A DNA stretch of 64,000 bases from Elusimicrobiota bacterium. Its GTDB lineage: Bacteria; Elusimicrobiota; Elusimicrobia; JACQPE01. Below the pieces are notes generated by a model that saw only the letters and a program-made list of their open reading frames with translations, searched no databases and was not told where the DNA came from. The translations under genes were made by a program, and so were the position numbers. Shown here one piece after another: positions 3,665-61,321 of the stretch; within the stretch, counting starts at the first letter, position 1; each line of letters opens with the position of its first letter. The stretch is taken from assembly GCA_016207685.1 (NCBI GenBank), contig JACQPE010000004.1, forward strand, positions 1,559-65,558. Direction: 5' to 3'.

Positions 3665-3682
3665 AGGGGCACGTCCGGCGTT

Positions 3683-5263
3683 TTACGGCGCGAATAATAA
3701 AAAAACGACCACGCCCAAAATGACCGCTGTTGCGGCGGCAGCCACGGTGGCCTTGGCTATTTTCTGCGTTTGGGTATCCTCCCTGGAATCCCCTCGTATC
3801 CGGCGCCATTTTCTGGATTCCTCCGGCGTTAATCCGGTGGAAGACGCCGTTTCTTCCTTATAGTCAATGGTCAATACCTTTTTTTGAAAATTACCCGCGG
3901 CATCCACCGCCGCAATAACCATACGATTTTCTCCTAATTGCAGCGTTGTCTCCATCGAAAAATACCCTTGGCTGTCTGTATCGGCAGATGTCGCTCCCAA
4001 GCGGATGAGCGCCCCGGGCTCCGATCGCCCCTGGATGACCAACGAATTTTTCTTTATCGTTGAGAATTCTTGTTCGGGCTCAGTGATATCCAAAAATGGC
4101 GCTTGGCGGTCCAACGCTAATTTTTGCCAATCGCCAAATGGCCCTTCAAAACCCAAACGATCACGCAAAGAGACCCGATAAACATAAAGTCCGTCATCCA
4201 AACCAGTCCGACCAAAATCAAAAGGTTCCTCAAACGTAGCTGTTTCATCCCAAAGTAAAACGCCCTCCGGGGACTGCGCCACTTGAACACGCAGCAAAGA
4301 AACTTGAGGTATTCTCCGCATGATCCCGGCGCCGCGGCGGCTGCTTCCCATAACCCAACCCAAGGCGCTTCCTCGAAGAACAAAATTCCCTTGGTCTGAA
4401 ATCGTCTTTGTTGATGTAACTACGGATTCAGAATCCCAAAACTTCTCTATCACCACCCGGTTAGGAACTTCCGGCACAGGAACTGCTTGACCCGGAGGCC
4501 GGCCCGCAGGCACCTCCGTGGCAAAACCTTGACGCACAGAAACAGTTTGATTTTGCGCTTGAACATCAGCGACGCCCGCATAAACCTCAACCACTGTGGC
4601 CAAATCTTCGCGTACTCGGGCGCGGTATTCCACATTTTTCGATTTTGGCGTGATTCGGGCCGATTGGGTAACCACGCGAGCGCCCAAAGACCGAATTTCT
4701 CCTGAAATCAGCGCGGCCTCTCCAATGTTTTGCGCACCGGCGCGCTCAGGGCGTATAACGGCAAAAGATTGAGGTCCCAGGACCAAGTCTTCCCCTTGCG
4801 CGAAACGCACCCGCGCTTGGGAGAGCGCGCCGGTGCGCAAGCCGTCATCTTGCCAAATATCCATATTTTTCGAGGCGACTTTCCACAAGGGGGACTCCCG
4901 CCGCCGAAGCTCCACCAGCCGCTGAGTTTCCATGAGCTTAGCTGATCGCAGGCTTTCTTTTACCAATAAAACAGGAATTCTCAAGGTTTGCCCGGGTAAA
5001 GCCATGGCGGGATCCGATGTCGGCAGCTTGTTGTGCCGGGCAATTTCAGGCCAACGGCTAGGGTCCTTGAGATAACGCTCGCTTAAGGACCACCATGTAT
5101 CCCCGGGCTCAATAGCCACTTCTTGATAGAAGCGGGACTCTTCCGCGAAGATAAAATTCCATGTTCCAAGTTCTAGGCTCCAAGTCGAAAATAAAAAAAT
5201 CCCAGCGATTCGGCATCTTGTTTTGAACCGGGAACTGGGAACCGGGAACTGGGAACTAATCAT
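3683..5263 (-). CDS. LysM domain-containing protein with C-terminal transmembrane anchor
   Basis: LysM-like [20 protein letters not shown]...LPGQTLRIP; C-terminal hydrophobic [20 protein letters not shown]; ATG lies 2 nt after the histidine kinase stop (translational coupling); 5' codons are made of the heptamer repeat, so the true start is uncertain. Confidence 0.55.
5225..5256. repeat. heptanucleotide tandem repeat (GAACYGG)x4.5
   Basis: read directly: gaaccgg gaactgg gaaccgg gaactgg gaac, spanning the histidine kinase stop and the start of the LysM gene. Confidence 0.9.
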
Positions 5264-7388
5264 TTATGGGGATCGTGAAACTAAACGTGCTGCCTTGGCC
5301 TGCGGCGCTTTGGACCCAAATTTTACCGCCGTGAGCTTCGACGATTTCCTTGGAAATTAAAAGACCCAGCCCCGTGCCGCCTTTGGAACGCCCTTCAATT
5401 TGCCCATATTTCTTAAAAAGTCTCTGTTGATCTTCGGGAGCAATCCCCTCCCCCGTATCAACAACGTCAATGCGTAAAAATTTTTTTTCTGAAGCATCCC
5501 CCAGGCGCAAGGTGATTCGACCTCCGGAGGGCGTGTATTTCAGCGCATTACCAACAAGATTAATAAAAACTCGTTCAATTAGCGCCGCGTCGCAGGCGGC
5601 GCGGGAATCAAAACCGGAGATGGTCTCCAAGATAAGCTCATTCCCCAAAGCTCGGGCCCTGCCCTCAAACATCTCCACCACGTCGCGAGCCAAATCAGCA
5701 ACATTCACCGGATGCTTGGAAATGGGAATTGCTCCATGCTGAATGCGAAATGAATCCAAAATATTATTAATCATGGTCAACAAACGGCGCGAGGCGCGGT
5801 CCATTTGCGTCAATGCCCAACGCTGCTTTTCCGTCAAAACGCCCATGCCGGGGCCGTGCAACACTTCAATAAAACCGGTAATGCCGTTTAAAGGATTTTT
5901 TAAATCGTGGGTCACCGCTTGCACAAACTCATCTTTCACCGCCTCCATTTGCTTTTCGAGCGTCACATCACGCAAAACCAAAAGCTCGTCTAAAATCAAT
6001 GCCGGGGCGGCGTCATGTTTACCCACGGGCTCAAGATGCAGTTCATAAACTTTCTTCGTATTGGGACCCAGACTCAACTCCATTACCCTTGAGGGCACAT
6101 GGTCTTTTCGAAATGCCTCCACGGCTTCCATTACAAACGCGCGCCAAGGCGCACCTAAAGAATCTGCGTAGGGATGCTCCAAAATTTCCTGGAGCGCCTT
6201 GTCGGAAAAAAGAATTTTTCTGGCCTGCTCATTGGCCAAAACCACGTTCTGATTTTCGAGCAAGACAAGCCCATCGCGCATAGAGGCCATGGTGGCTTCG
6301 GTTTTGGCTTTTTCAGCCAGCAAACGCTCCAATTGAATCTCTGAATAACGCTTCAACTGAATGACCATCGCATCAAAACTGCTTTCAAGCTCCCCTATTT
6401 CATCTCTGCGGCTTTTTAAGGGAGTGATTTCAAATGAACCTTGGGCCACTTGGCGCGCCGCATGGATCAATTTCCATAATGGCCCCAACAGGCGCTGGGC
6501 CACCAACAAAGCCGCTGCCACGGAAACCAAAACGGCAAAAAATAACAACCCGAGCGCTCTCTTGCGGATTAAACGCACGCTGGCATAAGCATCGCTTTGC
6601 GCTTGTTGCGCCAACACCCAATAGGTCCCGCCGCCGATCGACACCGGAGCCCAGGAACCCACCATGGCGCCGGCGCCGTTGGGTAGCTCAAAATGGAGCG
6701 ATCCCATGGCGGCGGGATTTTGTCGCGCCTGGGCCACCAAGGGGTCGTCCCCCAAAATGGTCCCCATGACTGAACCGGACCGCGGGGACAAAAGCGTCCC
6801 TTGGGCATCAACAAAAAAAGCGTTGCCCGTTCCTGAAAACCGCTCCTCGGCTATCGCCTGGGCCAAAGATGCCGCTGATTCCTTAACGGTCAACAAAAGC
6901 TGCCCCTCGATCGTATCTTCGTGCCAAAGTCCGAGAATGGGACCTTGCTGGTTTTGACGGCTGCTCAATAGCGTCAAAACAGCCGCTGACAAGCTCGCTG
7001 AGGCTGGGCGCTTCGTCCAGTCTCCCGGATTGAAATTCCTCTGATATACCCTCAAGAGAACCTGTTTTTTTTCCAGATCCCAAACGGCAACCTCTAAAAT
7101 TTCAGGGTGCGTTTCCAGAAAACTGCTGATCATGCCGCGCTTTTGGCCGACCATGAGATCCCGCCGTTTCAGGATGCCTTTCAAAAATCCAGCCTGCTTA
7201 AGTGAATGCTCATAGCGCTCCCGAACGCGCTGGGCCAAAGATTGTGCTAATTTTGTTTCAAGCTCGAGGGTCGCCGACACCACTTCCTGTTCATTGAGAC
7301 GCAATAAGCGCCCGCCCACGCCCACGAGCGGTATTACGACCATGGCCACGAGCAATAAAGTCAGCTTGAGGCGTATCCCAGGATTCAT
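5256..7388 (-). CDS. sensor histidine kinase (TM sensor-HAMP-HisKA-HATPase_c)
   Basis: H-box [19 protein letters not shown]; ATPase boxes [25 protein letters not shown] and [25 protein letters not shown]; N-terminal TM helix and HAMP-like segment. Confidence 0.85.
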
Positions 7389-7465
7389 GATTAGTGGTCC
7401 TCTACGAAACTCTAGAGGGTATTGCGTGTTAATTCAAGACGGAAGACGGTCCAAAGGAGTTAGAC

Positions 7466-8425
7466 TCAAGCCGCGCGAAACCAACGGGCCACTTTAGGCC
7501 AAACCCGGCGATGCGCCATAGCGCTCACGGCTAGCCCAATATGTCCAACTGGGAATTCCCAATTCGTCACCTGTTTATTTAAAATTTTTTCCAAAGAACG
7601 CGAGCTTGCCGGAGGCACCAAATGATCCTCGGCGGCCATTAAATTAAGCACCGGGCATTGAATATGATTCAAATGAACGCGCTCATCGGCCAGACTGAGG
7701 CGGCTCTTAATAAGATTATTTTTTTGATAACACTCCCGGACAAATTCTTCAAACACAGCTCCGGGAATGTTCACGCCGTCATGGATCCATCGCTCCATGG
7801 CCTTAAAAAACGCCACAAATTCTCTGTCGCTTTTATTCTGATGGCGTTGAACGTATTTGTCAAACATGTTATGCAAAGGCCGCATCCATTGGAACCCCCA
7901 TTCCAGCATCCATGCCGGGATATTGCCGAATGCCCGCGCCACCTCATTTACCGGCAGAATCTGCGGCGATGACCAAAGACCCAGAAGGCTCTCAGAAACA
8001 TGAAAATCAACAGGAGCCGCCATAAGAGCCAATTTTTTTAATCCCTGCGGCATTAGGCTCGCATACATCAGGGCCAACGTGCCCCCCATGCAATAGCCCA
8101 GCATGGAAATTGTTGAATGGCCCGAACGGCGCCGCACAAGCGCGGCGCAATCCGGAATAACCCCGTAAACATAATCTTCAAGCGTATTAAAACGATCCGA
8201 ACGATCCGGAACACCCCAGTCAATCAAATAAATATCCAAGCCGCCGTGATTGAGCGATTCAATCACGCTGCGGCCCGGATAGAGATCGAGAATATAAGGC
8301 CGGTTAACCAAAGCAAAAACCATCAACACCGGCAGCGCGCCGGTTCGTTGACTGGGAAAGTGGCGCAACAAAACCTTCCCTTGGCGCCAAATCACGCGAT
8401 GCGGCGTGGCCCAAAGAGATTTCAT
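7466..8425 (-). CDS. phaC: poly(3-hydroxyalkanoate) synthase catalytic subunit PhaC, short class III/IV type
   Basis: alpha/beta-hydrolase with lipase box GYCMGG and upstream YLIDWG, both characteristic of ~36 kDa PhaC. Confidence 0.65.
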   Translation of the reverse strand: MKSLWATPHRVIWRQGKVLLRHFPSQRTGALPVLMVFALVNRPYILDLYPGRSVIESLNHGGLDIYLIDWGVPDRSDRFNTLEDYVYGVIPDCAALVRRRSGHSTISMLGYCMGGTLALMYASLMPQGLKKLALMAAPVDFHVSESLLGLWSSPQILPVNEVARAFGNIPAWMLEWGFQWMRPLHNMFDKYVQRHQNKSDREFVAFFKAMERWIHDGVNIPGAVFEEFVRECYQKNNLIKSRLSLADERVHLNHIQCPVLNLMAAEDHLVPPASSRSLEKILNKQVTNWEFPVGHIGLAVSAMAHRRVWPKVARWFRAA

Positions 8426-9867: not shown

Positions 9868-9877
9868 AAATAAAAAA

Positions 9878-9895
9878 GTCCAACGTCCAATGTCC
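9878..9895. repeat. heptamer array (GTCCAAY)x2.6
   Basis: gtccaac gtccaat gtcc; inverse complement of the array at 9934..9960. Confidence 0.8.
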
Positions 9896-9933
9896 GCTTT
9901 TTAAAATTTGAAGTAGGGAATTAAAAATTCCAT

Positions 9934-9960
9934 GACTTTGGATTTTGGACTTTGGACTTT
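9934..9960. repeat. heptamer array (GAYTTTG)x4
   Basis: gactttg gattttg gactttg gacttt; the same unit recurs at 24520..24550. Confidence 0.85.
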
Positions 9961-9981
9961 TTTCGTGATCTCCGCCATTTA

Positions 9982-13384: not shown

Positions 13385-14239
13385 TCAGTCTTGTTCATTG
13401 CGGCGCGGCAAGCGCATCACGCCGTCGCCCAAAGAAATCGCGTCGTGGGAATAAATGATTTGGCACTCCGCGCGCTCATCAAAAACCTCATCGGTCACGC
13501 GCACTCTGCCGACGCGCTCGATGAGCCAATAACGCTTGCGTGTTCGCGGATCCGTCGCCTGCCGGGTCTTGCGAATAACCGCTAATTCATCTCCTGGCAC
13601 CAGCCCATCTCTGGACCCTAGGCTAATAAAAATAATGTCCCCCTGCGAGAGCATCACCAACTCCTTGTCGCGGCTGGAAATGATCCGGCCGTCATAATTC
13701 GTGAACTCTCTCTGACGAATAATCCGCCGCTGGGAATTGGTCGCGGTGGATACGGCCATTGTCCCTTCGCTTCCATCGCCCGCAGGAATATCGCTTTCAG
13801 CGGCCTCGGCCACGGGGGTCATTCCGGCCTTGGTTTCTGCGCCCCGTGGTTCTTGTTGAGGCTTGGCCGCCGCCATTGTTGGTTGTTCAGAAGCCTGATG
13901 TTCGGATGCGCCCAATTTTTTTATATCCCCCCTGGAGGCCCCGGAAACATAATCCGGCCCCGGCAGCTTTAATACCTGCCCGGGAACAAGTTGATTAGGA
14001 TCTTTCAAGATGTCGCGATTGATGTCATAAATCGCGCTCCAATCATAACCGTTTTCCCTGAATAAAACCGCGATCTGCCAAAGGGTGTCGCCTTTAACGA
14101 CAACGTAGCGCTCCTCCAAAATTTCCTCTTCGGCCCCGGCCGCGCTGATCTGACATAAAACGCAAGCGGCCATGGCCGCTTGAATAAATATTATCTTTCG
14201 TGACCCCTGACCCCTGACCCATGACCGCTTATTCCTCAT
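13385..14239 (-). CDS. secreted LysM domain protein
   Basis: LysM YVVVKGDTLWQIAVLF...VPGQVLKLP; start moved to MRNKRSW (14239) to avoid a 71-nt overlap with comM; N-terminus reads as a signal peptide and its first codons are the (TGACCCC)n repeat. Confidence 0.55.
   Translation of the reverse strand: MRNKRSWVRGQGSRKIIFIQAAMAACVLCQISAAGAEEEILEERYVVVKGDTLWQIAVLFRENGYDWSAIYDINRDILKDPNQLVPGQVLKLPGPDYVSGASRGDIKKLGASEHQASEQPTMAAAKPQQEPRGAETKAGMTPVAEAAESDIPAGDGSEGTMAVSTATNSQRRIIRQREFTNYDGRIISSRDKELVMLSQGDIIFISLGSRDGLVPGDELAVIRKTRQATDPRTRKRYWLIERVGRVRVTDEVFDERAECQIIYSHDAISLGDGVMRLPRRNEQD
14201..14226. repeat. heptamer array (TGACCCM)x3.7
   Basis: tgacccc tgacccc tgaccca tgacc; a 2-unit copy (tgacccctgaccctg) occurs at 8903..8917. 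Confidence 0.9.
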
Positions 14240-16583: not shown

Positions 16584-17340
16584 TTATTGGATTTTTTGAA
16601 GCACATACATCACATTTTTGACAGACCAAAGCCGAAGCCGTAAAACCAATTGTGCCACTCGCGTCAAAAAAATGGACCACTTCATCCGATTGTTCGTCAT
16701 GAACAGAAATCTGGTTAGCAAACGGGGATCAAGGCCGTTGATCACCAACTCTACCCCGCGCGGAAATTTCATATTTGCCGGCCTGATGCATTGATCATGC
16801 CCCTGACCATGACGTATAAAAATAAGCCCCCCGGGCGCCAAGAGATCGACATACTCTGCCAGAACCTTCCGGTGGACCTCCCCGGCTTCTTTCGCCGAGC
16901 TAAAAAATTTCCGGGTAAATGGATGGAACTCCCGGATATAAATCAAATCGTACCGGCCTTGCGCCACGTCTCGGTTGGCTTTGGGATCCGTGCCATCGGC
17001 CACCAAAAAATTGACACCCTCCACGGAACCGTTTCTTTGGCGAGCGATTGCAACTCCCGCATCGGACAAGTCAAAGGCGGTTACTTCTTTCGCTAAGCAC
17101 CGCAGTGCCAGCGTCAAATGTCCCAGACCGCAGCCGACCTCAAGACACCGCCGGATTGTGTGTGTGTGTGTGTGTGTGCTTTTCTATCAGAACAGAAACC
17201 AAATAAACATCTTTAAATACGCGCCATTTCTCCACGATGGTGCTGTTGTGTTCGACCTTGGGGTCGCCTCGGGCATACCCAGCGTTTTGACCGCGCACAT
17301 GATCCATCATCTTATCTCGAACAAAATCAATGTTCCCCAT
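16584..17340 (-). pseudogene. class I SAM-dependent methyltransferase with reading frame broken at a (CA)11 tract (possibly phase-variable rather than dead)
   Basis: Rossmann motif I LEVGCGLGHLTLALR is in frame with ORF 16584..17117 but upstream of its TTG start; the N-terminal part is ORF 17140..17340 ending ...EKHTHTHTH-NPAVS*; one extra CA unit would fuse the two frames. Confidence 0.5.
17157..17178. repeat. (TG)11 dinucleotide microsatellite
   Basis: read directly: 22 nt of alternating tg. Confidence 0.95.
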
Positions 17341-17471
17341 ATTAATTATCTCCTTGTTGAACCTGACAATAGCCGACGCGATCGGGCCGGGCCGTTAAAA
17401 AATTATAACACGTCGGCGGCGCGCCCTGCAGGGGTGTAGGCAAGAAGGTATTCTATTTTTATAATAAGCTC

Positions 17472-24390: not shown

Positions 24391-24415
24391 CGTCCGGCGT
24401 CCGGCGTCCGGCGTC
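24391..24415. repeat. heptamer array (CGTCCGG)x3.5
   Basis: cgtccgg cgtccgg cgtccgg cgtc, 15 nt upstream of the murD start codon. Confidence 0.9.
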
Positions 24416-24519
24416 TTAAGCCTGAAAATAAAAAATTTAATAATGAAATCAGAGAGTGTAACAATGGAAAAATGAAAATCCGAAAATCCAAACTTCCATA
24501 CTCCAAATTTTTTTGATTT

Positions 24520-24550
24520 GACTTTGGACTTTGGACTTTGGACTTTGGAC
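24520..24550. repeat. heptamer array (GACTTTG)x4.4
   Basis: gactttg gactttg gactttg gactttg gac, ending 5 nt from the mraY stop codon. Confidence 0.9.
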
Positions 24551-24554
24551 TTCT

Positions 24555-25652
24555 TCATCTCACTTTCAAACTGGCCAAAGCAATGAGGGCCAAAATAACC
24601 CCGACCACCCAAAATCGAACCACAACTTTGGGCTCGGCCGCCCCCAAAAGCTCGAAGTGGTGATGAACGGGCGACATTTTAAAAATTCTCTTGCCCTTGG
24701 TCATGCGGAAATAGCCCATCTGAATAACCACGCTCAAGGATTCGGCCAAAAAAACACCGCCGATCACGGGCAGCAAAATCTCCTGCTTGGAGACAATGGA
24801 GACGAACACCAGCAAGGACCCCAACGGCAGCGATCCTGTGTCTCCCATAAAAATTTGCGCCGGATAACTGTTGAACCATAAAAATCCTAAACCCGCGCCG
24901 ATCAAAGCGGAAAGAACGATCGTGAGTTCCCCCGCGGCCGGCACTGAAATAATGCGCAAATACTGAGAAAACCGGGCATGCCCCGCGGCATAGACGAACA
25001 CGAGCATCGCGGAGGCCGCAATCACCAAATTACCGATCGCGAGTCCATCCATGCCGTCGGTTAAATTAACGCTGTTGGAAAATCCAACGAACAAGAGCAT
25101 CACCAGGAAAAAATAAAACACATGCAAATTAAGATAAGTCTCTTTGATAAAAGGCACATTAACGCTCAAAGCGAATTGGGCATTGGGGGGATAAAGCGCC
25201 AGATAAAAAGCGAACGCCGAGGCCGCGCCGATTTGAAGCAAGAATTTAACCCTGGAGCTTACGCCTTCGGCCCTGCCCTCGCGCCTCGGCGCGTGAATTT
25301 TGAGCCAGTCATCCCAAAACCCGAGCGCTGCAAATAAAAAAAGCAGCAATTGCGCCATCAGCACATAGCGGTTATCCGGGCGCGCCCATAAAAACACCGT
25401 CAACATCATCACCGCAATAATTAAAAGTCCCCCCCCAACGGCAATTCCTGTTTTGGTTTGATGGGAATCCGGACCCCAGACTTTGGGTTTATTGACCATT
25501 CCATGAGCCAAAAGCGTTCGAATCATCCAGGGTCCCATAAACAAACACACGGCGAAGGCCGTCACGGCCGCTGCCCCGGCCCTGAAGGTGATGTAAGAAA
25601 ATACATTGAGGCCAAAATAGCTGTGGCGTAACAGAGAAAGATAATAGAGCAT
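24555..25652 (-). CDS. mraY: phospho-N-acetylmuramoyl-pentapeptide transferase
   Basis: polytopic membrane protein with MraY blocks IFMGDTGSLPLG and PVHHHFEL. Confidence 0.9.
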   Translation of the reverse strand: MLYYLSLLRHSYFGLNVFSYITFRAGAAAVTAFAVCLFMGPWMIRTLLAHGMVNKPKVWGPDSHQTKTGIAVGGGLLIIAVMMLTVFLWARPDNRYVLMAQLLLFLFAALGFWDDWLKIHAPRREGRAEGVSSRVKFLLQIGAASAFAFYLALYPPNAQFALSVNVPFIKETYLNLHVFYFFLVMLLFVGFSNSVNLTDGMDGLAIGNLVIAASAMLVFVYAAGHARFSQYLRIISVPAAGELTIVLSALIGAGLGFLWFNSYPAQIFMGDTGSLPLGSLLVFVSIVSKQEILLPVIGGVFLAESLSVVIQMGYFRMTKGKRIFKMSPVHHHFELLGAAEPKVVVRFWVVGVILALIALASLKVR

Positions 25653-28204: not shown

Positions 28205-30589
28205 ATGAAAACACCCTCTGCAATAATGGCCCGCCTGGATTACGGCCCCAATCCCGAAACAACCAAAGTCCATTTTAAGCCGATTTATGATCTTTTTATT
28301 AACAATGAATGGGCGCCACCGATATCCGGAAAATACTATGACACCATCAATCCGGCCGCGGGCAAAGCGCTGGCCAAGATTGCCTGGGGCAATGAGCTTG
28401 ATATTGACCGCGCCGTCAAGGCCGCCCAAGAAGGATTTAAAACATGGAAATCTTATTCCCCCTCCGAGCGCAGCCGTCTGATCTTCGCTTTGGCCCGTAT
28501 CATCCAAGAACGCTCCCGCGAATTGGCCATTGCCGAAACGCTCAATAACGGTAAGCCCATTCGCGAATCGCGTGACATTGATATTCCATTGGCGGCGCGG
28601 CACTTTTTCTACCACGCGGGATGGGCCGACAAACTGGAATCAGCATTTGCCGATATTACGATCGCACCCCTGGGCGTTGTCGGTCAAATCATCCCTTGGA
28701 ATTTCCCCTTTCTCATGCTGGCTTGGAAAGTGGCTCCCGCATTGGCTGCCGGCAATGCCGTGATCTTAAAACCCGCGGAAACCACGCCCCTAACAGCGCT
28801 TTTATTTGCCGATATCTGCCGTGATGCAGGGCTGCCGCCAGGCACCGTTAACATCGTCACCGGGCACGGCGACACAGGCGCCGCCTTGGCCAACCACCCA
28901 GGCGTGGCCAAAATCGCTTTTACCGGTTCGACCGAAGTGGGGAAATTAATCCGCAAGGCCACGGCCGGTTCAGGCAAAAAACTGTCCCTCGAACTCGGCG
29001 GTAAATCCCCAACGATTATCTTCGAGGATGCGCCGCTCTATCAAGCCGTTGAAGGCATCGTGGACTCAATTTTCTTTAACCAAGGCCAGGTGTGCTGCGC
29101 CGGCTCCAGACTGTTGCTCGAAGAAAGCATCGCTCCCAAATTTATCGAACTTCTGAAAGACCGGATGGCCAAAATTCGCGTCGGCGACCCCATGGATAAA
29201 AATACGGATATGGGCGCCATTAACTCTCAAGATCAGCTTGATAAAATCCGCCATTACGCCAAAATCGGACAAGATGAGGGAGCCTGCTTGTGGCAAGCTC
29301 CTTGCGAGCTGCCCAAACAGGGTTTTTTCTTTCCCCCAACGATTTTTACGGAAGTTCAAACCACTCATACGATTGTTCAAGAAGAAATTTTCGGCCCGGT
29401 GCTTTCCATCCTGACATTCAGAACCGTGAACGAAGCCGTGGAACTGGCCAATAACACGCCCTATGGCCTGGCTGCGAGCGTCTGGACTAAAGATGTGTCC
29501 AAGATGGTGGCTGTATCGCGAACGCTCAAAGCGGGCACCGTCTGGGGCAATGGCACGAATAAATTCGATGCAGCCGCCGAATTCGGCGGACACAAAGAAT
29601 CCGGCTTTGGCCGCGAAGGCGGTTTGCAGGGACTATGGGAGTACTTGCAAGTTCAAAGTTCAAAGTCCGAAGTCCGAAGTCTCGATGAAATCTACCGCAA
29701 CGCCTCACCGCAACCCGCAACCCGCAACCCGCAACCCGCAACTCATGTATGGAAAACGCCGAAGATGCTCATCGGCGGCAAGCAGGTTCGCACGGAATCA
29801 GGCCGTTATTACAAAATCAACGCCGCCAACGGCCAAAAACTTCTTGCCGATGTTAATCAAGGCTCGCGTAAAGACATTAGAGATGCCGTTGAAGCGGCGC
29901 ATGCCGCTTTGCCTGGATGGTCCAAAACCACGGCCTACAATAGAGGCCAAATTCTCTACCGCATGGCCGAGATGCTTTCCTCCCGCGCCTCTGAATTCGC
30001 CCATGCCATTGCCGCCCAAACAGGGAGTTCCTGGGAAGATGCCGCAGGTGAAGTTTCCTTAACCATCCAACGCCTGCTCCACTATGCCGGCTGGTCGGAT
30101 AAATACACGGGGAGCGTCAATCCCGTGACACAAACGGACTTTAACATCACCTACCCGGAAGCCGTCGGCGTCGTCGCTTTATTCGCGCCCAACACCCGGC
30201 CCCTCTTGGGCCTCATCAGCAAATTAGCGCCCGCTTTTGCAGCCGGCAACACGAGCGTCGTCGTTGCCTCCGAGCAATTTCCCCTAAGCGCCACGGACTT
30301 TATTGAAATTTTAGACAGCTCGGACGTCCCTGCGGGCGTCATTAACATCATAACCGGATTGCATGAAGAACTCCTGCCCACTGTAGCCGAACACCGCGCC
30401 GTGGGCTTGATTGATGTTTCAGGACCCGCCGCACGGGTTAAAATAGCCGAGGAGCTTTCGATCAGCAACCTCAAACGCGTTTATCATGACCCGGAAATGC
30501 CGGATTGGACATCTCCCGAAGCCCAAGGCCGATTGTGGATGCGCCGCTACCTGGAATTTAAAACCGTCTGGATCACCAGCGGCTTTTAA
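28205..30589 (+). CDS. aldehyde dehydrogenase fused in frame to a second, truncated ALDH-like module
   Basis: module 1 complete (LSLELGGKSP, catalytic FFNQGQVCCAGSRLL, end ...GLWEYLQVQ); heptamer-encoded linker SSKSEVRS...PQPATRNPQPAT; module 2 from Met 29765 (MLIGGKQV...) has ALDH N-terminal/NAD-binding-like sequence but no catalytic Cys/Glu region. Confidence 0.7.
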   Translation: MKTPSAIMARLDYGPNPETTKVHFKPIYDLFINNEWAPPISGKYYDTINPAAGKALAKIAWGNELDIDRAVKAAQEGFKTWKSYSPSERSRLIFALARIIQERSRELAIAETLNNGKPIRESRDIDIPLAARHFFYHAGWADKLESAFADITIAPLGVVGQIIPWNFPFLMLAWKVAPALAAGNAVILKPAETTPLTALLFADICRDAGLPPGTVNIVTGHGDTGAALANHPGVAKIAFTGSTEVGKLIRKATAGSGKKLSLELGGKSPTIIFEDAPLYQAVEGIVDSIFFNQGQVCCAGSRLLLEESIAPKFIELLKDRMAKIRVGDPMDKNTDMGAINSQDQLDKIRHYAKIGQDEGACLWQAPCELPKQGFFFPPTIFTEVQTTHTIVQEEIFGPVLSILTFRTVNEAVELANNTPYGLAASVWTKDVSKMVAVSRTLKAGTVWGNGTNKFDAAAEFGGHKESGFGREGGLQGLWEYLQVQSSKSEVRSLDEIYRNASPQPATRNPQPATHVWKTPKMLIGGKQVRTESGRYYKINAANGQKLLADVNQGSRKDIRDAVEAAHAALPGWSKTTAYNRGQILYRMAEMLSSRASEFAHAIAAQTGSSWEDAAGEVSLTIQRLLHYAGWSDKYTGSVNPVTQTDFNITYPEAVGVVALFAPNTRPLLGLISKLAPAFAAGNTSVVVASEQFPLSATDFIEILDSSDVPAGVINIITGLHEELLPTVAEHRAVGLIDVSGPAARVKIAEELSISNLKRVYHDPEMPDWTSPEAQGRLWMRRYLEFKTVWITSGF
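29651..29685. repeat. heptamer array (GTYCRAA)x5 inside coding sequence
   Basis: gttcaaa gttcaaa gtccgaa gtccgaa gtctcga. Confidence 0.9.
29709..29743. repeat. heptamer array (CGCAACC)x5 inside coding sequence
   Basis: cgcaacc x4 then cgcaact; encodes PQPATRNPQPAT in the ALDH frame. Confidence 0.9.
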
Positions 30590-38800: not shown

Positions 38801-38813
38801 GGCGGACAATAGA

Positions 38814-38848
38814 GTTCCAAGTTCCAAGTTCCAAGTTCCAAGTTCAAA
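38814..38848. repeat. heptamer array (GTTCMAA)x5
   Basis: gttccaa x4 then gttcaaa, 14 nt upstream of the ftsI start. Confidence 0.9.
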
Positions 38849-38896
38849 ATGGAAAAGGGCCAAAAAAAGCAGGGCTTCTTTTCCCTCTTGACTTTT

Positions 38897-38924
38897 AACT
38901 TGGAACTTGGATATTGGAACTTTC
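38897..38924. repeat. heptamer array (AACTTGG)x4, inverse complement of 38814..38848
   Basis: aacttgg aacttgg atattgg aactttc. Confidence 0.85.
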
Positions 38925-38930
38925 TGCTGA

Positions 38931-39203: not shown

Positions 39204-39250
39204 TCGCGCCGCCTTGAAAAACCAAAAGAATGCCGAATGCCGGAATCTAA

Positions 39251-39360
39251 AACGTCGAATTTCGAACGTCGAATTAAGGAACAGGGAAAATTTTGAATTT
39301 TAAATTTTGAATTTTGAATTAAGGAATTCATTTTATTTGTCATTTGAGATTCGTCATTCG
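39251..39360. repeat. compound short-tandem-repeat region: (CGTCGAA/TTTCGAA)x3, (AATTTTR)x4, (GTCATTY)x2
   Basis: aacgtcgaatttcgaacgtcgaatt ... ttttgaattttaaattttgaattttgaatt ... gtcatttgagattcgtcattcg; related to 51470..51506. Confidence 0.85.
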
Positions 39361-40265: not shown

Positions 40266-40670
40266 GCATTACCGGCGGCATCTGCCGGAGGGCCGCCCTT
40301 CATCTATTACAGATCGAGGGAGGAAATTCCGAACTCCGCAGAGCCAGGGTGCCGTCTAAAAGGCGGGGCGCCCGTTGGAGACAACCGGCGCACGGACAGT
40401 GCCACAGAAACGAAACCACCCCATGATCCGTCACGATTAAGGGGAACGGGTGAAACCGTGAGGTAAAAGCTCACGCAGAATCATAGAAATATGAATCCGG
40501 AGGAAAACCCCACCTGGAGCAAGGCTGGATTTAGGAAAACTCCGCCAGGTCAGGCTCAAGACCGGGGTTCCTAAGTCCCTGCAAAGCAGAACGCCGCTTA
40601 GATAAATGGTCCTCGCTTGATTTTTACATCAAGCACAGAATTCGGGGTACAGGCAAGCCGCCGGTAATGC
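40266..40670 (+). ncRNA. rnpB: RNase P RNA (bacterial type)
   Basis: P4-region block GAGGAAAUUCCGAACUCCGCAGAGCCAGGGUGCCG (cf. GAGGAAAGUCCGGGCUCC...GGGCAGGGUGCCAGG); also CACGGACAGUGCCACAGAAACGAAACCACC, GGUGAAACCGUGAGGUAAAAGCUCAC and CCACCUGGAGCAAGGCUGGAUUUAGG; 14-bp terminal helix gcattaccggcggc/gccgccggtaatgc. Confidence 0.8.
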
Positions 40671-42163: not shown

Positions 42164-43651
42164 ATGCGGCGGCAAATTCTCATCTTTGCGGCGCTCGCTA
42201 TTTTTTGGCCCGCGGCCGCGCATGCCGGCTGCTCCAAAACAGAAAGGATGTCATTCCTGGAAGCCATCAACCTCATTGACAGGCCTGTCACCGGAATCAT
42301 TGAACATTCGGGGCTTTCCAATGGCTGCAAACGGACGATTCTAAAAAGCCTCTCCGAGGCTTTTGAATTTCGCTCCCAAAACAACCTCTGTTTTGCCGAT
42401 GAAGAACGGTCCTGCCAACAGCTCTTTGAAGCGGCGGCAGCCATTGATGAATTATTAAAAGAAGGCGAACGCCCTCTGTGCCGCCGCCACGGAAAAAATG
42501 AGGAAGAAGCGGAAAGCGATAATGAAGAAGACGCCGAGGAAGAAGACGCATGCGACGCGAACGAAAAAAACGCCTGGTTGATCGCTGCTGCCGATGCCTC
42601 GGCCGGCATGGCGATTGAATTTGAAATTCTTCATTTTGAGGATAAACTTTCAAAAAAAATTGTCCCTTACTGCCTGCTGCCCCAGGCCTGTTTTGATGAA
42701 GGCCCTCAATGCCGCCGCGAACTGGCCAAAATGTGGTGGGGGGGCACCGGGTTCGACTTTGGCGATCGCAAGAATGAGGAATTCTGGCTGCGATCCGGCG
42801 GCTTTATCCATCTCTTTCTGGCCTCCGCCTTCACCTGCAGTTCAGGCCGCCAACACGGCGGAACGTGCTCGATTTATTCGGGAGCCAGTCTCATGGCCCA
42901 TTACTGCTCGACGCCGGCCACCAACCCCAATGCCGCCCCCGGAACATGCGCCATGACGGGCCCCGGATTTGAGTGTGTTTTGCCGGATCAGCTCCTTGAG
43001 GACGCCTACCAACATAAAGCGTGGAAACGGGAAATTTGTCGCACGGATAAAGAGACCGCAACGGTCACTTGCTCGCCGACTACGAATACAACTTTGGAAA
43101 ATAGCAGCGACGCCGCAATGGCCAGGCTTGACAAAAACAAATGCCATGACTCAACCAGCGCGCCGGATCAAAAAATTTGCGAACGTCTAAAAAACCGCTC
43201 GGGAAGAATCAACCGCAATGCCGCCATTTTGACGGAAGGAATAGACGCGATAGGCGATCCCAACGCTTCTCTTCGAGGCCGCTCCGGGGCTTACCTATGG
43301 AGCCTAATTAATGTTTATGAGGGCTATGGATTTGATGCCAAATTCTACGCGGCCAACGAAACCGGATGGAATAGCGCTCTGGAATCGGTGGCCGACGGCC
43401 ATCCCGTTCAAATAGGGATTGATGTCAAAAATTGGAAATACTACGGCTCCCGGGGCGGCCGCCATGCCGTTGTTCTTGAAGGCGCTTGGCTGGGGCCCGA
43501 TGGGTGGCAGGTCCTTCTGCGTGATTCCAACTTTCCGGACGTCGTAAAAATTTTTGAAGCGGATTTTATCAAGGCCACTTTTCTTGAAGGCGGCGGCGGC
43601 GTCGGCGTGCGGCCGCCGGCAGCCCCTTCAAGGCCGCCGGCCGGTCAATAA
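42164..43651 (+). CDS. secreted cysteine-rich protein with acidic segment and C-terminal papain-like (C39-like) domain
   Basis: signal peptide MRRQILIFAALAIFWPAAAHA; acidic run EEEAESDNEEDAEEEDACD; candidate Cys motif TCSIYSGASLMAHYC and His motif GGRHAVVLEGAWLGPDGWQVLLRDSN. Confidence 0.35.
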   Translation: MRRQILIFAALAIFWPAAAHAGCSKTERMSFLEAINLIDRPVTGIIEHSGLSNGCKRTILKSLSEAFEFRSQNNLCFADEERSCQQLFEAAAAIDELLKEGERPLCRRHGKNEEEAESDNEEDAEEEDACDANEKNAWLIAAADASAGMAIEFEILHFEDKLSKKIVPYCLLPQACFDEGPQCRRELAKMWWGGTGFDFGDRKNEEFWLRSGGFIHLFLASAFTCSSGRQHGGTCSIYSGASLMAHYCSTPATNPNAAPGTCAMTGPGFECVLPDQLLEDAYQHKAWKREICRTDKETATVTCSPTTNTTLENSSDAAMARLDKNKCHDSTSAPDQKICERLKNRSGRINRNAAILTEGIDAIGDPNASLRGRSGAYLWSLINVYEGYGFDAKFYAANETGWNSALESVADGHPVQIGIDVKNWKYYGSRGGRHAVVLEGAWLGPDGWQVLLRDSNFPDVVKIFEADFIKATFLEGGGGVGVRPPAAPSRPPAGQ

Positions 43652-44371
43652 ATTTTTGGAAAGCAAGGCCTGGGCGCGCTCGTAATCGGCGGGGGTGCCG
43701 ATATCAATAAAAAAAGCTTCCGGAAACGCCAATGCATAAAGCGATTTATTCGCCATTGTTGGAAATAGGCCGTATTCCAGAGAAAAATCAACGCCCTTGG
43801 GGATCTCAGCCAGAACGCGGCGCTCAACAACATAAGCGCCGCCATTGATCAAACATGGGGCCGAGTCCGGCGTTTTAGTTTTTTCCAAAAAAGCCGTGAC
43901 AAGACCGCTGTCATTGGATTGAACGCGGCCATAGCGGCCCTCATCAATGACTTTGGCCAACGCCAAGGTGAGATCGGCCCGATGGCGGACGTGCCAATCC
44001 CAAAGTTCGGCCAACGACGCATTAAAGTAAACATCCCCGTTAAAAGCGAAAAATTTATCTTCTTGAATCAATGGCTCCGCTTCTTTAATGGAACCAGCAG
44101 TCCCCAGCTGGCGCCTAGGATCGGAATATAAAATTTCCGCGCCCCAGGAGCCGCCATCGCCAAAATAAGCCTTCATTTTATCCGCATGATAAGCCACGGC
44201 CAAAATAATTCGATGAATTCCCTGGCGCACCAGGCGTACAATAAAATGCTCCAAAAAAGGTTTCCCCGCCACAATCAACATGGGCTTGGGCGTGTCTTTG
44301 GTCAAAGCGCCCAAACGCGCGCCTAACCCACCGACCAATACCACCGCTTCTTTGGGCATTCCTGCAGCCAT
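43628..44371 (-). CDS. sugar-phosphate nucleotidyltransferase (NTP_transferase family)
   Basis: N-terminal VLVGGLGARLGALTKDTPKPML pyrophosphorylase signature. Confidence 0.75.
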   Translation of the reverse strand: MAAGMPKEAVVLVGGLGARLGALTKDTPKPMLIVAGKPFLEHFIVRLVRQGIHRIILAVAYHADKMKAYFGDGGSWGAEILYSDPRRQLGTAGSIKEAEPLIQEDKFFAFNGDVYFNASLAELWDWHVRHRADLTLALAKVIDEGRYGRVQSNDSGLVTAFLEKTKTPDSAPCLINGGAYVVERRVLAEIPKGVDFSLEYGLFPTMANKSLYALAFPEAFFIDIGTPADYERAQALLSKNLLTGRRP

Positions 44372-44440
44372 AAACTTGTTATTGATTTTCGAGTTCTTTG
44401 TCTATTTTGCCAAGTTATGAACGAACCCGCACTTAAAATT

Positions 44441-44534
44441 TAGGACTTTAGTCCTATTTATTAATAGGACTTTTATCCCATTAAAACATGGGACTTCAGT
44501 CCTAAATTAACCGGCTTCTTAGGACTCAAACTTA
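44441..44534 (+). promoter_or_regulatory. array of four AGGACT(n2)AGTCCT-type near-palindromes with 24/24/30-bp spacing, immediately upstream of the 44541 start codon
   Basis: TAGGACTTTAGTCCTA (44441), TAGGACTTTTATCCCA (44465), TGGGACTTCAGTCCTA (44489), TTAGGACTCAAACTTA (44519). Confidence 0.55.
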
Positions 44535-44540
44535 AATGCT

Positions 44541-45722
44541 ATGAAACATTTATTGACAGCCGCTTTGGTCAATATGACCGCAGTCAACATGCCGCTTTAC
44601 GCGGATCATGGCCAGGGCGCTCCGGATGCCCCAGCGGATTTCGCTTATGAAGACCTGCGCTGCCGCTGGGAAGGCGGCGCAGGCAGCAGGGTTGTCTGCG
44701 AGGATCAAGATGGAGGCGGTATCAGCGCTTCCTGCGATGACCTAAAAAAAATTTGCGAAGCGGGCTTGACTCAAACGAAGATGGGAATTCCAGCCATTGA
44801 ATCCCAACAAGAACAAAACCATGAACCTCTCACCAATGCCCAAGGAGAACCCTGCCAAACCTTACAGACCGGCACTGTTGCCTGCACCAAAAAAGACGGC
44901 TCTATCTATGCCTCCCGGCTCGGCGCTCAATCAGCCGCGTCCATCCTATTTGATGGAAACGCGGATGTCTCCATCTTCAATAGCGCCGATGGCTACACCT
45001 GCGAGGTAACGGCCGGCCGGTACTCGGTTTGCGAAAAACATGATGAAACAGGACGACTGGCGCATAGCTTTGGCGCCACCTGCGACATGCGTCCGGATCT
45101 TTGCGGACCCGCTTCCGATTCAACGACATCTCCCTCCACTCAAAAACAAGCTGAACAAATCGCGGTATTTCCGCAAGGCAATGACGGGCTGCCGGAGTTG
45201 GACCTGGGTTTAGGTTCATCAGGAAATTCAACAACAACTCCGGCAGCTGGATCACCGGCCCATGACAACGGACTTCTCATGACCGAGGGTGCCCCATCAG
45301 TATATGACCCTCTGATGGAACAATCCGAATCTGCCCTGCGTCAAACGGATGCTGCCATCAAGAAAGTTTGGCGCGAGGTCAAAAAAGGAGCCCAATCAAT
45401 CACCAACGCGGCGGCGGCTCAATTGAATCATTTGAGTCTGCGCCTTTGGCACGCCATTTCCCACCAGGTGACGCGCACGCAAGTGATGCGCCGGCTGCCG
45501 GCTAAATATTTCGCCTCAAACGGCATTTTTGAAAAACCGGACAAAGTCCTTCTTGAACTCAATCTTATCGCGGAGCCAGGATTGCCGGCCATGCTCCGGG
45601 ATGTGAGCGTCACCGAAGAATGCCTGGGCGCCGTTCCTGGGCAGGCGAGCGTGCAACACGTGGACATGCTCGCCCAATGCGGCCGGGTCGCTTTCGGCGA
45701 AAGCCGCAGATTCAAAATATAA
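44541..45722 (+). CDS. hypothetical secreted cysteine-rich protein
   Basis: signal peptide MKHLLTAALVNMTAVNMPLYA; paired Cys throughout; Ser/Thr/Gly-rich linker; no family recognised. Confidence 0.4.
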   Translation: MKHLLTAALVNMTAVNMPLYADHGQGAPDAPADFAYEDLRCRWEGGAGSRVVCEDQDGGGISASCDDLKKICEAGLTQTKMGIPAIESQQEQNHEPLTNAQGEPCQTLQTGTVACTKKDGSIYASRLGAQSAASILFDGNADVSIFNSADGYTCEVTAGRYSVCEKHDETGRLAHSFGATCDMRPDLCGPASDSTTSPSTQKQAEQIAVFPQGNDGLPELDLGLGSSGNSTTTPAAGSPAHDNGLLMTEGAPSVYDPLMEQSESALRQTDAAIKKVWREVKKGAQSITNAAAAQLNHLSLRLWHAISHQVTRTQVMRRLPAKYFASNGIFEKPDKVLLELNLIAEPGLPAMLRDVSVTEECLGAVPGQASVQHVDMLAQCGRVAFGESRRFKI

Positions 45723-49876: not shown

Positions 49877-50449
49877 GAATCCACTGACAGTTTAGCGAAT
49901 TATTGGATAGAGAACCGCTTCCAATGCCGTGGCGGCTCCCACTGCCTTCAGGACTCTTGCCTAACGATCCGGCTGACCTATTGAGCCGGCTCCGTCTTTG
50001 GATGCGTCGTAAGCATCGCCGTAAATGGTCGCAGTCTCATCGAGCGTGGCCCGCCTCGCTTTTCTATAAGCGGGGGCTCTGTCGCCCTGGCGCCGCTTTA
50101 TATTGTCGGGCTAGCAGGCGAGGCGGCCTTGGGTAAAATCGGCGTTTTAACGATGAATTTGCAATACCACATGGCAAAAATGGAAACCGTTACTTTTACT
50201 GATTGTTGCGGCGATGATTCCGGCGCCTTGAAGTCCGCGGATGGAACGAAGAACATCTCCATTGATTACGGCGGAATATTCATCAGCATGGGACTCGGTT
50301 TTTAGCGAAGCCTCAAAAATAGAACTGGGGTCAATGCCTGACACATATTTTTTGTAAATAATAAAATTTCCATTATGTCTCACCCGCTTCGCATAGAATA
50401 GTAAAGGTGTAGCCCAGGGGAGCCCCCCGCCAACAATCCCTACATTCCG

Positions 50450-50480
50450 AAAAATGCCCCTGGCCGGGGCGCATTTTTGC
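50450..50480. terminator. bidirectional rho-independent terminator-like hairpin downstream of meaB
   Basis: aaaaat-gcccc-tggcc-ggggc-gcattttt: GC stem flanked by an A-run and a T-run. Confidence 0.5.
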
Positions 50481-50497
50481 CGGTGATAACACGATTT

Positions 50498-51469: not shown

Positions 51470-51506
51470 ATTTTCAATGACGATTTTCGAATGACGAATT
51501 TCGAAT
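51470..51506. repeat. (TTTCGAA/TGACGAA) 14-mer tandem repeat x2.5
   Basis: ttttcaatgacgattttcgaatgacgaatttcgaat; shares the core GACGAATTTCGAA with 39251..39275. Confidence 0.85.
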
Positions 51507-60022: not shown

Positions 60023-60094
60023 TGTCCCCAAGTGGAATTGAACCACTATCTTTGCCTTCGCAGGGCAACACTCTATCCGTTGAGCTATGGGGAC
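60023..60094 (-). tRNA. tRNA-Arg, anticodon GCG
   Basis: cloverleaf folded by hand from GTCCCCATAGCTCAACGGATAGAGTGTTGCCCTGCGAAGGCAAAGATAGTGGTTCAATTCCACTTGGGGACA; acceptor 7 bp, Arg-type D-arm, anticodon loop CTGCGAA. Confidence 0.75.
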
Positions 60095-60765: not shown

Positions 60766-60854
60766 GGAGAGATGCGTGAGCGGTTGAAACGGCACGCCTG
60801 GAAAGCGTGTATAGCCGAAAGGCTATCGAGGGTTCGAATCCCTCTCTCTCCGCA
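60766..60854 (+). tRNA. tRNA-Ser, anticodon GGA
   Basis: class II tRNA: acceptor GGAGAGA/TCTCTCC, D-loop GAGCGGTTGAA identical to E. coli tRNA-Ser, anticodon loop CTGGAAA, long variable arm TAGCC-GAAA-GGCTA, T-loop TTCGAAT; T-run follows. Confidence 0.85.
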
Positions 60855-61321
60855 CTTTTTTAGAGAAAAAGTACGGTTCGGACGGCCCCTGCTCGGAGGG
60901 CAGGGACCCTTGAAGCGCCTGAGGCGCGTTGAGCCGGAGGCGCTGGGACGAATATAAAATATGTCCCATTCTCTCCGCAGAAGTTGACAGATTTCAAAAC
61001 TCTACCGCAAGAAAGCCGCGTTCATGTTGGGCAACGGGCGGAGCAATAGCTCAACCGTCTTTCTAGGCCATTCATGGTTGAGATTATCCTCCGTTGTGGG
61101 TATCCCAGCGCCTCGGCGCACACAACAATCCCTGTTTTTGGGGCTCAATAGGTTCATTTGCATTATGGCCTGTCGTTTTGCTGTCTACGCTTCACGACCA
61201 GCGTCGCCGAGGACCTTGCAAGACGCGCTACGACCCTGCGGGCTAGGCTTTGGGTTGATGGAACTTGCATCCATTGGATTTCTACGGCTTTCCTGGCGCA
61301 GGGGGGTTAGGGGTTAAAAAA

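Follow-up and report, generated by a model that had tools for sequence, protein, structure and literature searches.

A palindromic box array of probable DevR/LiaR type upstream of a secreted-protein gene in an Elusimicrobia genome

The stretch of DNA analysed here, referred to as the window, comprises 64,000 nucleotides (64 kb) of a metagenome-assembled genome (MAG) of an Elusimicrobiota bacterium (assembly GCA_016207685.1, contig JACQPE010000004.1, positions 1,559–65,558 of the forward strand). Within it, directly upstream of the gene for the hypothetical protein HY547_00305, we found an array of 16-bp palindromic boxes. We consider it probable that these are primary, secondary and primary boxes for a phosphorylation-activated response regulator of the NarL family (DevR/LiaR type), which would be encoded outside the window and whose dimers would activate transcription through a box at −42.5. 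The regulator in the source genome, its cooperative binding, the preference for activation over repression and the transcription start are all inferred from sequence. The array is most likely an ordinary signal-controlled promoter switch, neatly built, and not a new type of element or mechanism.

A first-pass annotation of the region, made from the letters alone, had placed 16-bp sites at 44441, 44465, 44489 and 44519, with spacings of 24, 24 and 30 bp. The first three starts and both 24-bp steps agree with our reading, but the fourth site begins one base later once the half-sites are in register, which makes the last step 31 bp. Left half-sites of the form T[AG]GGACT begin at 44441, 44465, 44489 and 44520, and right half-sites of the form AGTCC[CT]A begin at 44450 and 44498 (Table 1). 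As the annotation had noted, sites 1 and 3 are near-perfect dyads (site 1 is perfect over 7 + 7 bases and site 3 has one mismatch), and sites 2 and 4 each keep one good half-site, the left half being perfect in both. It had also described a degeneracy gradient toward the start codon, but the observed order is strong-weak-strong followed by an out-of-register half-site 31 bp on. Likewise, the proposed placement of the sites on the same face of the helix did not survive, as a 24-bp step corresponds to 2.29 helical turns, or a rotation of ~103 degrees each time; this step is better described as a box-to-box distance typical of the family. Box 4 is out of register because it lies 31 bp from box 3. 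It is probably accessory or vestigial, and is possibly a relic or a low-affinity site.

The three in-register boxes were also recovered by a repeat search, as three 24-nt units that are 67–83% identical to each other, spacers included. Jointly, boxes 1–3 form an imperfect large palindrome, an inverted repeat with 33-nt arms (44437–44469 and 44476–44508). When up to three mismatches were allowed, TAGGACTNNAGTCCTA matched the 64-kb window three times, and all three matches were boxes 1–3, whereas 0.48 matches would be expected in the whole window; no further site was found outside the array at this threshold, which gives no sign of a regulon within the window. The variant AGGACTNNAGTCCT, searched with up to two mismatches, also gave three matches in the window, two of them in the array. 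An independent Logan assembly of run SRR12113385, from the same groundwater sample, also has the array (L001; loci from our scans are numbered in this way), which is therefore not an assembly artefact.

To place the array among other genomes, we scanned one genome per GTDB species for TAGGACTNNAGTCCTA, which yielded at least 120 loci; the genome counts given here refer to the 120 matches listed. The palindrome TAGGACT-WW-AGTCCTA (W, A or T) was found across phyla. Of the 112 sites outside Elusimicrobia, 67 have TT or AA and 15 have TA as the central pair, which the scan left free; the excess of W-W centres was seen even in GC-rich genomes. At least 10 loci in 8 Elusimicrobia assemblies carry a 16-mer identical to box 1, all of them W-W centred, and two of the 10 Elusimicrobia loci listed belong to JACQWW (GCA_016209025.1), a relative of the source MAG. 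Because the flanks of the listed Elusimicrobia sites are unrelated to each other, these sites are independent and not copies of a repeat. The many copies with conserved flanks that mark a dispersed repeat, such as a repetitive extragenic palindromic (REP) or miniature inverted-repeat transposable element (MITE), were likewise not found, the window having a single locus. The annotation had named as a refutation that the motif would occur nowhere else, or at random with respect to gene starts; instead, other Elusimicrobia have the palindrome too, and its distance from the start codon is fixed.

Two further groups of matches were of a different kind. In the cyanobacterium MFD03044.bin.2.81, the palindrome lies inside a longer dispersed repeat (containing gtagtTAGGACTTTAGTCCTAaaaaagcgataaatcgctgactac) on at least 10 contigs (L044, L050, L060, L069, L074, L084, L099, L106, L115 and L125), which behaves like a small mobile or REP-like element separate from the regulator sites. 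Bacteroidales-type contigs carry tandem TAGGACTGCAGTCCTA-like boxes with GC, CC or AC centres at 22–23-bp spacing, up to three in a row (L075 at 2927–2990, L021, the metagenomic loci L128, L133, L135–L138, L150 and L153, and others), and no GerE gene was seen near the arrays in those loci.

Partial sites near the perfect sites of the genome sample gather at 22–26 bp (16 of 43 events). We then scanned metagenomes for a perfect box followed within 0–30 nt by TAGGACT, and 72 loci gave 57 unique arrays. Their start-to-start distances were 22 bp in 3 arrays, 23 bp in 19, 24 bp in 7, 25 bp in 2, 26 bp in 3 and 27 bp in 1, so that 35 of the 57 fall at 22–27 bp, which represents 6 of the 31 possible offsets, with a mode of 23 followed by 24. 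The 24-bp step of the window is thus typical for the TAGGACT-WW-AGTCCTA motif, which usually has a degenerate partner box at 22–24 bp. Spacings of 28–31 bp occurred in none of the 57 unique arrays, so the 31-bp step to box 4 is atypical.

The position of the boxes relative to promoters is also recurrent. In 274 non-redundant flanks of W-W-centred sites, TAnnnT hexamers peaked 55 nt from the box centre (19, compared with a mean of 6.9 and a standard deviation of 3.3), and offsets of 54–57 nt were all raised; the peak therefore puts the perfect box at about −66.5. The layout in Elusimicrobia consists of the perfect box, 8 nt, a weak box with the left half T-R-G-G-W-C (R, A or G), 22 nt, one of the hexamers TATAAT, TATACT, TAGCCT or TACTCT, 6 to 9 nt, and the ATG. 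Seven other Elusimicrobia promoters have the perfect box at about −66.5 and the weak box at −42.5 relative to their predicted −10 elements. The box centre lies 66.5–69.5 nt from the ATG of a long open reading frame (ORF) with a signal peptide in L121, L079, L036, L024 and L053, a distance that implies leaderless or nearly leaderless mRNAs, and L092 and L054 (Elusimicrobium minutum MAG) have the same layout plus a 9-nt Shine–Dalgarno leader. Genes downstream of the Elusimicrobia boxes include a subtilase operon (L053), a gene for a trypsin-like protease (L092) and genes for proteins without a Pfam family.

For the gene downstream of the array, two promoter registers can be predicted. Register 1 uses the hexamer TAAATT, at the modal offset from the centre of box 1; it would start transcription at ~44515 with a 26-nt leader, placing box 1 at −66.5 and box 2 at −42.5, and it parallels the perfect box at −66.5 and weak box at −42.5 of the other Elusimicrobia loci. 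Register 2 uses the weaker hexamer CAAACT; it would start at ~44539–44541 and be leaderless, with boxes 1, 2 and 3 at about −90.5, −66.5 and −42.5. This register matches the box-to-ATG distances of L121, L036, L024, L053 and L079 and parallels the Class II primary-secondary-primary layout of DevR. Because the boxes are 24 bp apart, either predicted start (~44515 or ~44540) puts boxes at −42.5 and −66.5. A leftward box-dependent promoter that shares box 2 and serves the divergent nucleotidyltransferase operon is also conceivable, because the array is palindromic and its minus strand has a second TAAATT at 55 nt from box 3. Such a promoter would parallel the divergent DevR promoters narK2-Rv1738, tgs1-Rv3131 and hspX-Rv2032 (PMC3177182).

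Elsewhere in the window, a TATAAT-like hexamer lies 6–12 nt before the start codon, without a Shine–Dalgarno sequence, at 15839 (−), 17472 (+), 27220 (−), 30693 (+) and 60164 (+), which suggests that leaderless mRNAs are frequent in the source genome.

Several loci connect the palindrome with NarL/LuxR-family response regulators. A GerE helix-turn-helix is encoded within an 8-kb block at 13 of the 120 listed loci (tblastn), and 9 of these 13 have a DosR-like helix, (K/R/Q)T(V/I)KN(H/Y) or TVKN[HY]. The palindrome lies in the promoter region of a gene or operon for a regulator with REC and GerE domains at 11 of the 120 loci. In seven listed cyanobacterial loci (L017, L010, L059, L073, L094, L102 and L114), this is the promoter of an operon for a HisKA_3 kinase and a REC-GerE regulator; in L008, L041, L051 and L076, the palindrome is upstream of the regulator gene, at a distance of ~100 bp or less in three and ~420 bp in L041. 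The metagenome scan gave eight further loci with a GerE gene. At the metagenomic locus L172, 24 nt separate the stop codon of a TVKNH regulator gene from a pair of boxes, one perfect and one weak, at 24-bp spacing; the sequence of the weak one, TAGGACTTTTATCTCT, differs very little from that of box 2 in the window. The loci L147, L151, L194 and L172 each have, at 24 bp from a perfect box, a secondary box near-identical to box 2 (TAGGACTTTTATCTCA, or the form ending in TCT). The L017 regulator is most similar to LiaR/VraR structures (5hev, E = 2e-46) and to DevR (3c3w, E = 3e-40).

The annotation had read the sites as operators bound cooperatively by a dimeric regulator whose gene lies elsewhere, and had left the factor unknown. 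Apart from the same-face and gradient details, its core idea has strong comparative support, and the motif core shared with the DevR/DosR box, together with the fit to the LiaR skeleton, points to a NarL-family response regulator. Its remark that no regulator gene is adjacent can be extended, as no gene of the NarL/LuxR type was found anywhere in the 64-kb window: searches for a REC-GerE regulator by tblastn (with the GerE consensus, the DosR C terminus and the motif-linked regulator and kinase as queries) and by Pfam on 46 ORFs found none. The only two-component proteins in the window are a REC-only ORF (1–330) and a HAMP-HisKA kinase (5256–7388), and LiaF and HisKA_3 genes were sought in the window and not found.

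At the conserved cyanobacterial locus (L017 at 2913–7573; also L010, L059, L073, L094, L102, L114, L147 and L151), the palindrome and a weak neighbour 23–24 bp away lie between divergent operons. According to gene maps and Pfam, the operon opposite the regulator encodes an LTXXQ (Spy/CpxP-like) protein, an HlyD protein and a MacB-type ABC exporter, and the locus looks like an uncharacterised envelope-stress two-component system. At L172 (2040–8235), genes for a kinase and the TVKNH regulator are followed by the boxes and then by a putative heterodisulfide-reductase-like (HdrCBA/MvhD) operon, recognised by reading N-terminal sequences; this would be a redox regulon reminiscent of that of DosR.

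In the mechanism that we propose, phosphorylated dimers of a regulator with REC and GerE domains would occupy the strong boxes 1 and 3 first and, by cooperative recruitment, bring another dimer to the weak box 2 at a distance of 24 bp. The box near −42.5 would overlap the −35 region and, together with its neighbour at −66.5, recruit RNA polymerase. As a result, the gene for the secreted Cys-containing protein would be switched on, possibly along with the divergent nucleotidyltransferase operon. We favour activation over repression because the boxes lie upstream in other genomes and because of the behaviour of DevR and LiaR.

A number of observations weigh against this model. In register 1, the strong box 3 abuts the −10 element, an arrangement that would be repressive, whereas register 2 has a poor −10 element (CAAACT) that is overlapped by box 4. 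The half-site is AGGACT and not the GGGACT of the DevR box, the outermost G being replaced by A in three of the four strong halves, and the boxes are 24 bp apart from centre to centre compared with 21 bp for DevR, so that the helical phasing of the DevR arrays is not reproduced. A NarL/LuxR-type regulator gene is present at none of the 10 listed Elusimicrobia loci, nor in the window. The regular spacing of the three boxes could partly stem from a simple 24-nt duplication. The ORFs in the GC-rich loci are our own calls and are unverified. Finally, the palindrome appears over-represented in Elusimicrobia, a statement that depends on at least 120 loci as listed and on a share of the phylum among species-level genomes that we estimated, rather than computed, at well under 1%.

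One possible alternative is that the boxes are operators for a repressor, of the same or an unrelated dimeric helix-turn-helix family, that would occlude a constitutive AT-rich promoter lying within the array (TTAAAA, 16 nt, TAAATT, start at ~44515). Palindromes overlapping core promoters are typical of repressors, and here the best −10-like hexamer (44503–44508) adjoins box 3 or lies partly within it, box 2 covers the −35 region and box 4 would sit at about +6 to +21. In Elusimicrobia and in other phyla, however, the perfect box is found ~55 nt upstream of the −10 hexamer, which is an activator position, and DevR, LiaR and VraR activate at such arrays (PMC3177182, PMC4482077, PMC13486717). 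We regard repression as unlikely, although it is the main rival to our model. A function at the RNA level, either as stem-loops in the 5′ leader (a stability element, an attenuator or CsrA-like GGA sites) or as a bidirectional terminator, could explain why the region 44425–44560 folds to −34.5 kcal/mol (z = −5.4 relative to shuffled sequences), why a terminator-like signal is called at box 1 on both strands and why the region has four A/U-GGA motifs, the last of them near the start codon. Yet any palindrome array folds well by construction, and with a divergent gene starting on either side of the region, a terminator would have no transcript to end. In box 2, two of the six stem pairs are lost while the left half-site is perfect, and what is conserved across genomes is the half-site sequence and the W-W centre, not merely the pairing. 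Moreover, under the shared promoter geometry, most or all boxes would be upstream of the predicted transcription start, and an Rfam search found no family at the array. An RNA-level role is thus very improbable.

It is also conceivable that the array is a functionless by-product, either a slipped 24-nt tandem duplication or what is left of a small, palindromic mobile element brought in together with the orphan gene. The resemblance of the repeat units, which extends into the spacers, fits such an origin, as do the orphan status of the downstream gene, the presence of another gene at this position in relatives and the one cyanobacterial genome in which the same palindrome lies inside a dispersed repeat. 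By contrast, the window has one locus only, the Elusimicrobia sites have unrelated flanks rather than being copies of one element, and the 22–24-bp spacing, the −10 offset and the start-codon distance recur in unrelated genomes. We consider this the least probable of the explanations, with only a slight chance of being correct. Other candidates were dropped: CsrA-type GGA sites, a replication origin and recombinase sites were considered from the sequence and had no supporting feature, and a tie to the (GACTTTG)n heptamer repeats of the window was judged coincidental, those repeats being part of a general heptamer phenomenon with many units.

Table 1 The box array, its predicted promoter elements and the flanking genes in window coordinates
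Feature	Position	Strand	Description
Box 1 (primary)	44441–44456		TAGGACTTTAGTCCTA; perfect 7-2-7 dyad, right half-site from 44450; sequence read directly
Box 2 (secondary)	44465–44480		TAGGACTTTTATCCCA; left half perfect, right half degenerate and without the GAC core
Box 3 (primary)	44489–44504		TGGGACTTCAGTCCTA; one mismatch, left half with DosR-type GGGACT, right half-site from 44498
Box 4	44520–44535		Lone left half-site TAGGACT (44520–44526), then CAAACTTAA; out of register
24-nt tandem repeat, three units	44433–44504		Unit TTAAAATTTAGGACTTTAGTCCTA; 8-bp AT-rich spacer + 16-bp box; from repeat search
−10-like TAAATT, register 1	44503–44508	+	55 nt (modal offset) from box 1 centre
Weak −10-like CAAACT, register 2	44527–44532	+	8 nt before ATG
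Mirror-image −10-like TAAATT	44437–44442	−	55 nt from box 3 centre; read from sequence
Gene for hypothetical protein HY547_00305	44541–45722	+	393 aa, 12 Cys; ATG at 44541; Elusimicrobia MAG
Divergent gene for sugar-phosphate nucleotidyltransferase	43628–44371	−	PF00483; NCBI start at 44359
Sigma-70-like promoter match for the nucleotidyltransferase	44385–44413	−	TTGGCA, 17 nt, GAAAAT; consensus match (9 of 12)

The array occupies the spacer between two divergent genes, which is 169 bp long with 33% GC. The annotation had described the product as a secreted, cysteine-rich protein; the 393-aa protein has a signal peptide that we judged plausible by eye, in addition to its 12 cysteines. No Pfam family matched it, and a search for homologues in 5.8 billion protein clusters returned only the protein itself. 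In the nearest genomes, whose nucleotidyltransferases are 59–62% identical, the gene order is nucleotidyltransferase, Zn-ribbon protein, RNase H, rsmH, ftsL, ftsI and murE, and a different gene lies upstream of the nucleotidyltransferase gene across a spacer of 32–230 bp. On the other side of the nucleotidyltransferase gene, the window has a gene for a 495-aa protein (42164–43651, +) with 18 cysteines, a lipoprotein-like signal (…AAAHAG|C) and a weak Peptidase_C39_2 match. The nucleotidyltransferase and Zn-ribbon genes are adjacent in all relatives examined, whereas in the window the gene for the 495-aa protein is inserted between them and runs in the opposite direction. Comparison of the 393-aa and 495-aa proteins, as flanking Cys-containing secreted proteins, showed that they are not paralogues.

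Features unrelated to the array include ~20 heptanucleotide tandem repeats, with units such as GACTTTG, AGTTCCA/AACTTGG, GAACTGG/TTCCAAG, CGTCCGG and AATTTTG, among others. They lie at 5150–5265, 9868–9981, 24470–24560 and 38805–38930, and also at 14201–14226, 24391–24415, 39228–39320 and 51470–51506, and they resemble the short tandemly repeated repetitive (STRR) heptamers of cyanobacteria. Where complementary heptamer arrays oppose each other, the result is a long hairpin (−29 to −56 kcal/mol) immediately 3′ of a minus-strand gene; these hairpins look like unusual terminators. Three successive heptamer arrays, (AAGTTCA), (AAGTCCG) and (CCGCAAC)5, lie at 29649–29742 inside the long ORF 28205–30589; because 7 is not divisible by 3, this ORF may be two genes or contain a variable tract. 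A match to group II intron domains D1–D4 (61092–61267, −) lies beside genes for tRNA-Arg and tRNA-Ser (60023–60094, −, and 60766–60853, +), and RNase P RNA is encoded at 40275–40665 (+). Two stretches lack an ORF of at least 80 aa: 621 bp at 49877–50497, between LolA-like and MeaB genes, and 354 bp at 17118–17471, which contains a (TG)11 microsatellite at 17157–17178.

From an anonymous palindrome of an uncultured phylum, the analysis derives testable regulatory predictions: the family of the regulator, a template of boxes and promoter for further scans, and a candidate regulon of secreted proteins, which in relatives include subtilase- and trypsin-like proteases. To our knowledge, almost no transcription-factor sites have been established experimentally in Elusimicrobia. 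The conservation across phyla of the box sequence, the 22–24-bp pairing and the −66.5/−42.5 geometry could be useful for inferring regulons in lineages represented only by MAGs, and shows how far DNA recognition of the DevR/LiaR type is conserved. It is possible, although we advance this more tentatively than the model for the array itself, that a box with a weak partner at 22–24 bp and a −10 element at 55 nt is the signature of an ancient, undescribed regulator-operator pair that extends from Cyanobacteria and Chloroflexi to Elusimicrobia and involves NarL-family regulators with a K-N helix. The regulon under its control in Elusimicrobia would be made up of leaderless genes encoding secreted, mostly lineage-specific proteins and proteases, with the array described here as one member.

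Escherichia coli NarL belongs to the same regulator family and binds as a dimer to an inverted repeat with a 2-bp centre (7-2-7), its heptamer being TACYYMT compared with TAGGACT in the window. We found no paper containing the exact AGGACT variant or the palindrome in the searchable literature, and the consensus of Streptomyces OsdR (AGGGCCGATCGGCCCT) was rejected as a match, since its inner bases differ.

In sequence, the array resembles the box of Mycobacterium tuberculosis DosR, also called DevR, a protein for which NarL has been named as the closest homologue (PMC13486717). The DosR/DevR box has the core GGGACT-WW-AGTCCC, as in the probe TTGGGGACTAAAGTCCCTAA used in electrophoretic mobility shift assays (PMC5999986), and in the cryo-electron microscopy structure of the complex, K179, K182 and N183 of helix alpha-9 read GGGACT (PMC13486717). 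Chauhan et al. described every promoter of the DevR regulon as having 2–4 tandem boxes, in which secondary boxes of low conservation gain DevR through cooperative recruitment from the conserved primary ones; within each half-site, G5 and C7 (18-bp numbering) are essential, the layouts include primary-secondary-primary (Class II) and four-box divergent intergenic promoters, and example boxes lie at −42.5 and −63.5, the proximal one at −42.5 (PMC3177182). The window shares the core GGACT-WW-AGTCC, with GGGACT itself in box 3, and in boxes 1 and 3 each half retains the essential G5 and C7 (the GAC core). Its tandem mixture of primary and secondary boxes, strong-weak-strong with a stray half-site, matches the Class II configuration (PMC3177182). 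Besides the half-site and spacing differences mentioned above, the flanks of the window boxes are AT-rich in place of TTS…SAA (S, C or G), the host is an Elusimicrobia MAG, and the target is the gene for a secreted orphan protein rather than a hypoxia or dormancy gene. Because the spacing is 24 and not 21 bp, the geometry of the oligomer must differ from that of M. tuberculosis DevR.

The array also resembles the sites of LiaR and VraR. Enterococcal LiaR has the consensus T(X)4C(X)4G(X)4A, and the activated tetramer occupies the consensus together with an adjoining secondary site, protecting ~42–44 bp (PMC4482077). Boxes 1 and 3 fit this skeleton exactly (T1, C6, G11 and A16), whereas it is broken in boxes 2 and 4 by an A at position 11; the combination of a consensus site with an adjoining secondary site is likewise shared, and the cyanobacterial regulators that adjoin the palindrome are most similar to LiaR/VraR structures. 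By contrast, the internal bases of the enterococcal sites differ from those of the window boxes. LiaR reads DNA with K177-T178, and the recognition helix of NarL has K188-V189 (PMC4482077), whereas the regulators associated with the palindrome carry a DosR-like K-N pair. The genomic setting differs as well, as the window array is flanked by the orphan secreted-protein and nucleotidyltransferase genes, without liaF- or liaS-like genes, and not by operons resembling liaFSR/liaXYZ or vraSR.

The cyanobacterial HisKA_3/REC-GerE loci share with the window an identical 16-bp palindrome, a degenerate neighbour 23–24 bp away and a divergent intergenic site, although there the regulator gene adjoins the site. 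On its sequence and tandem arrangement, and given its departure from 21-bp phasing, the array would be best filed with box arrays of the DevR/LiaR type and not as a strict Dev box.

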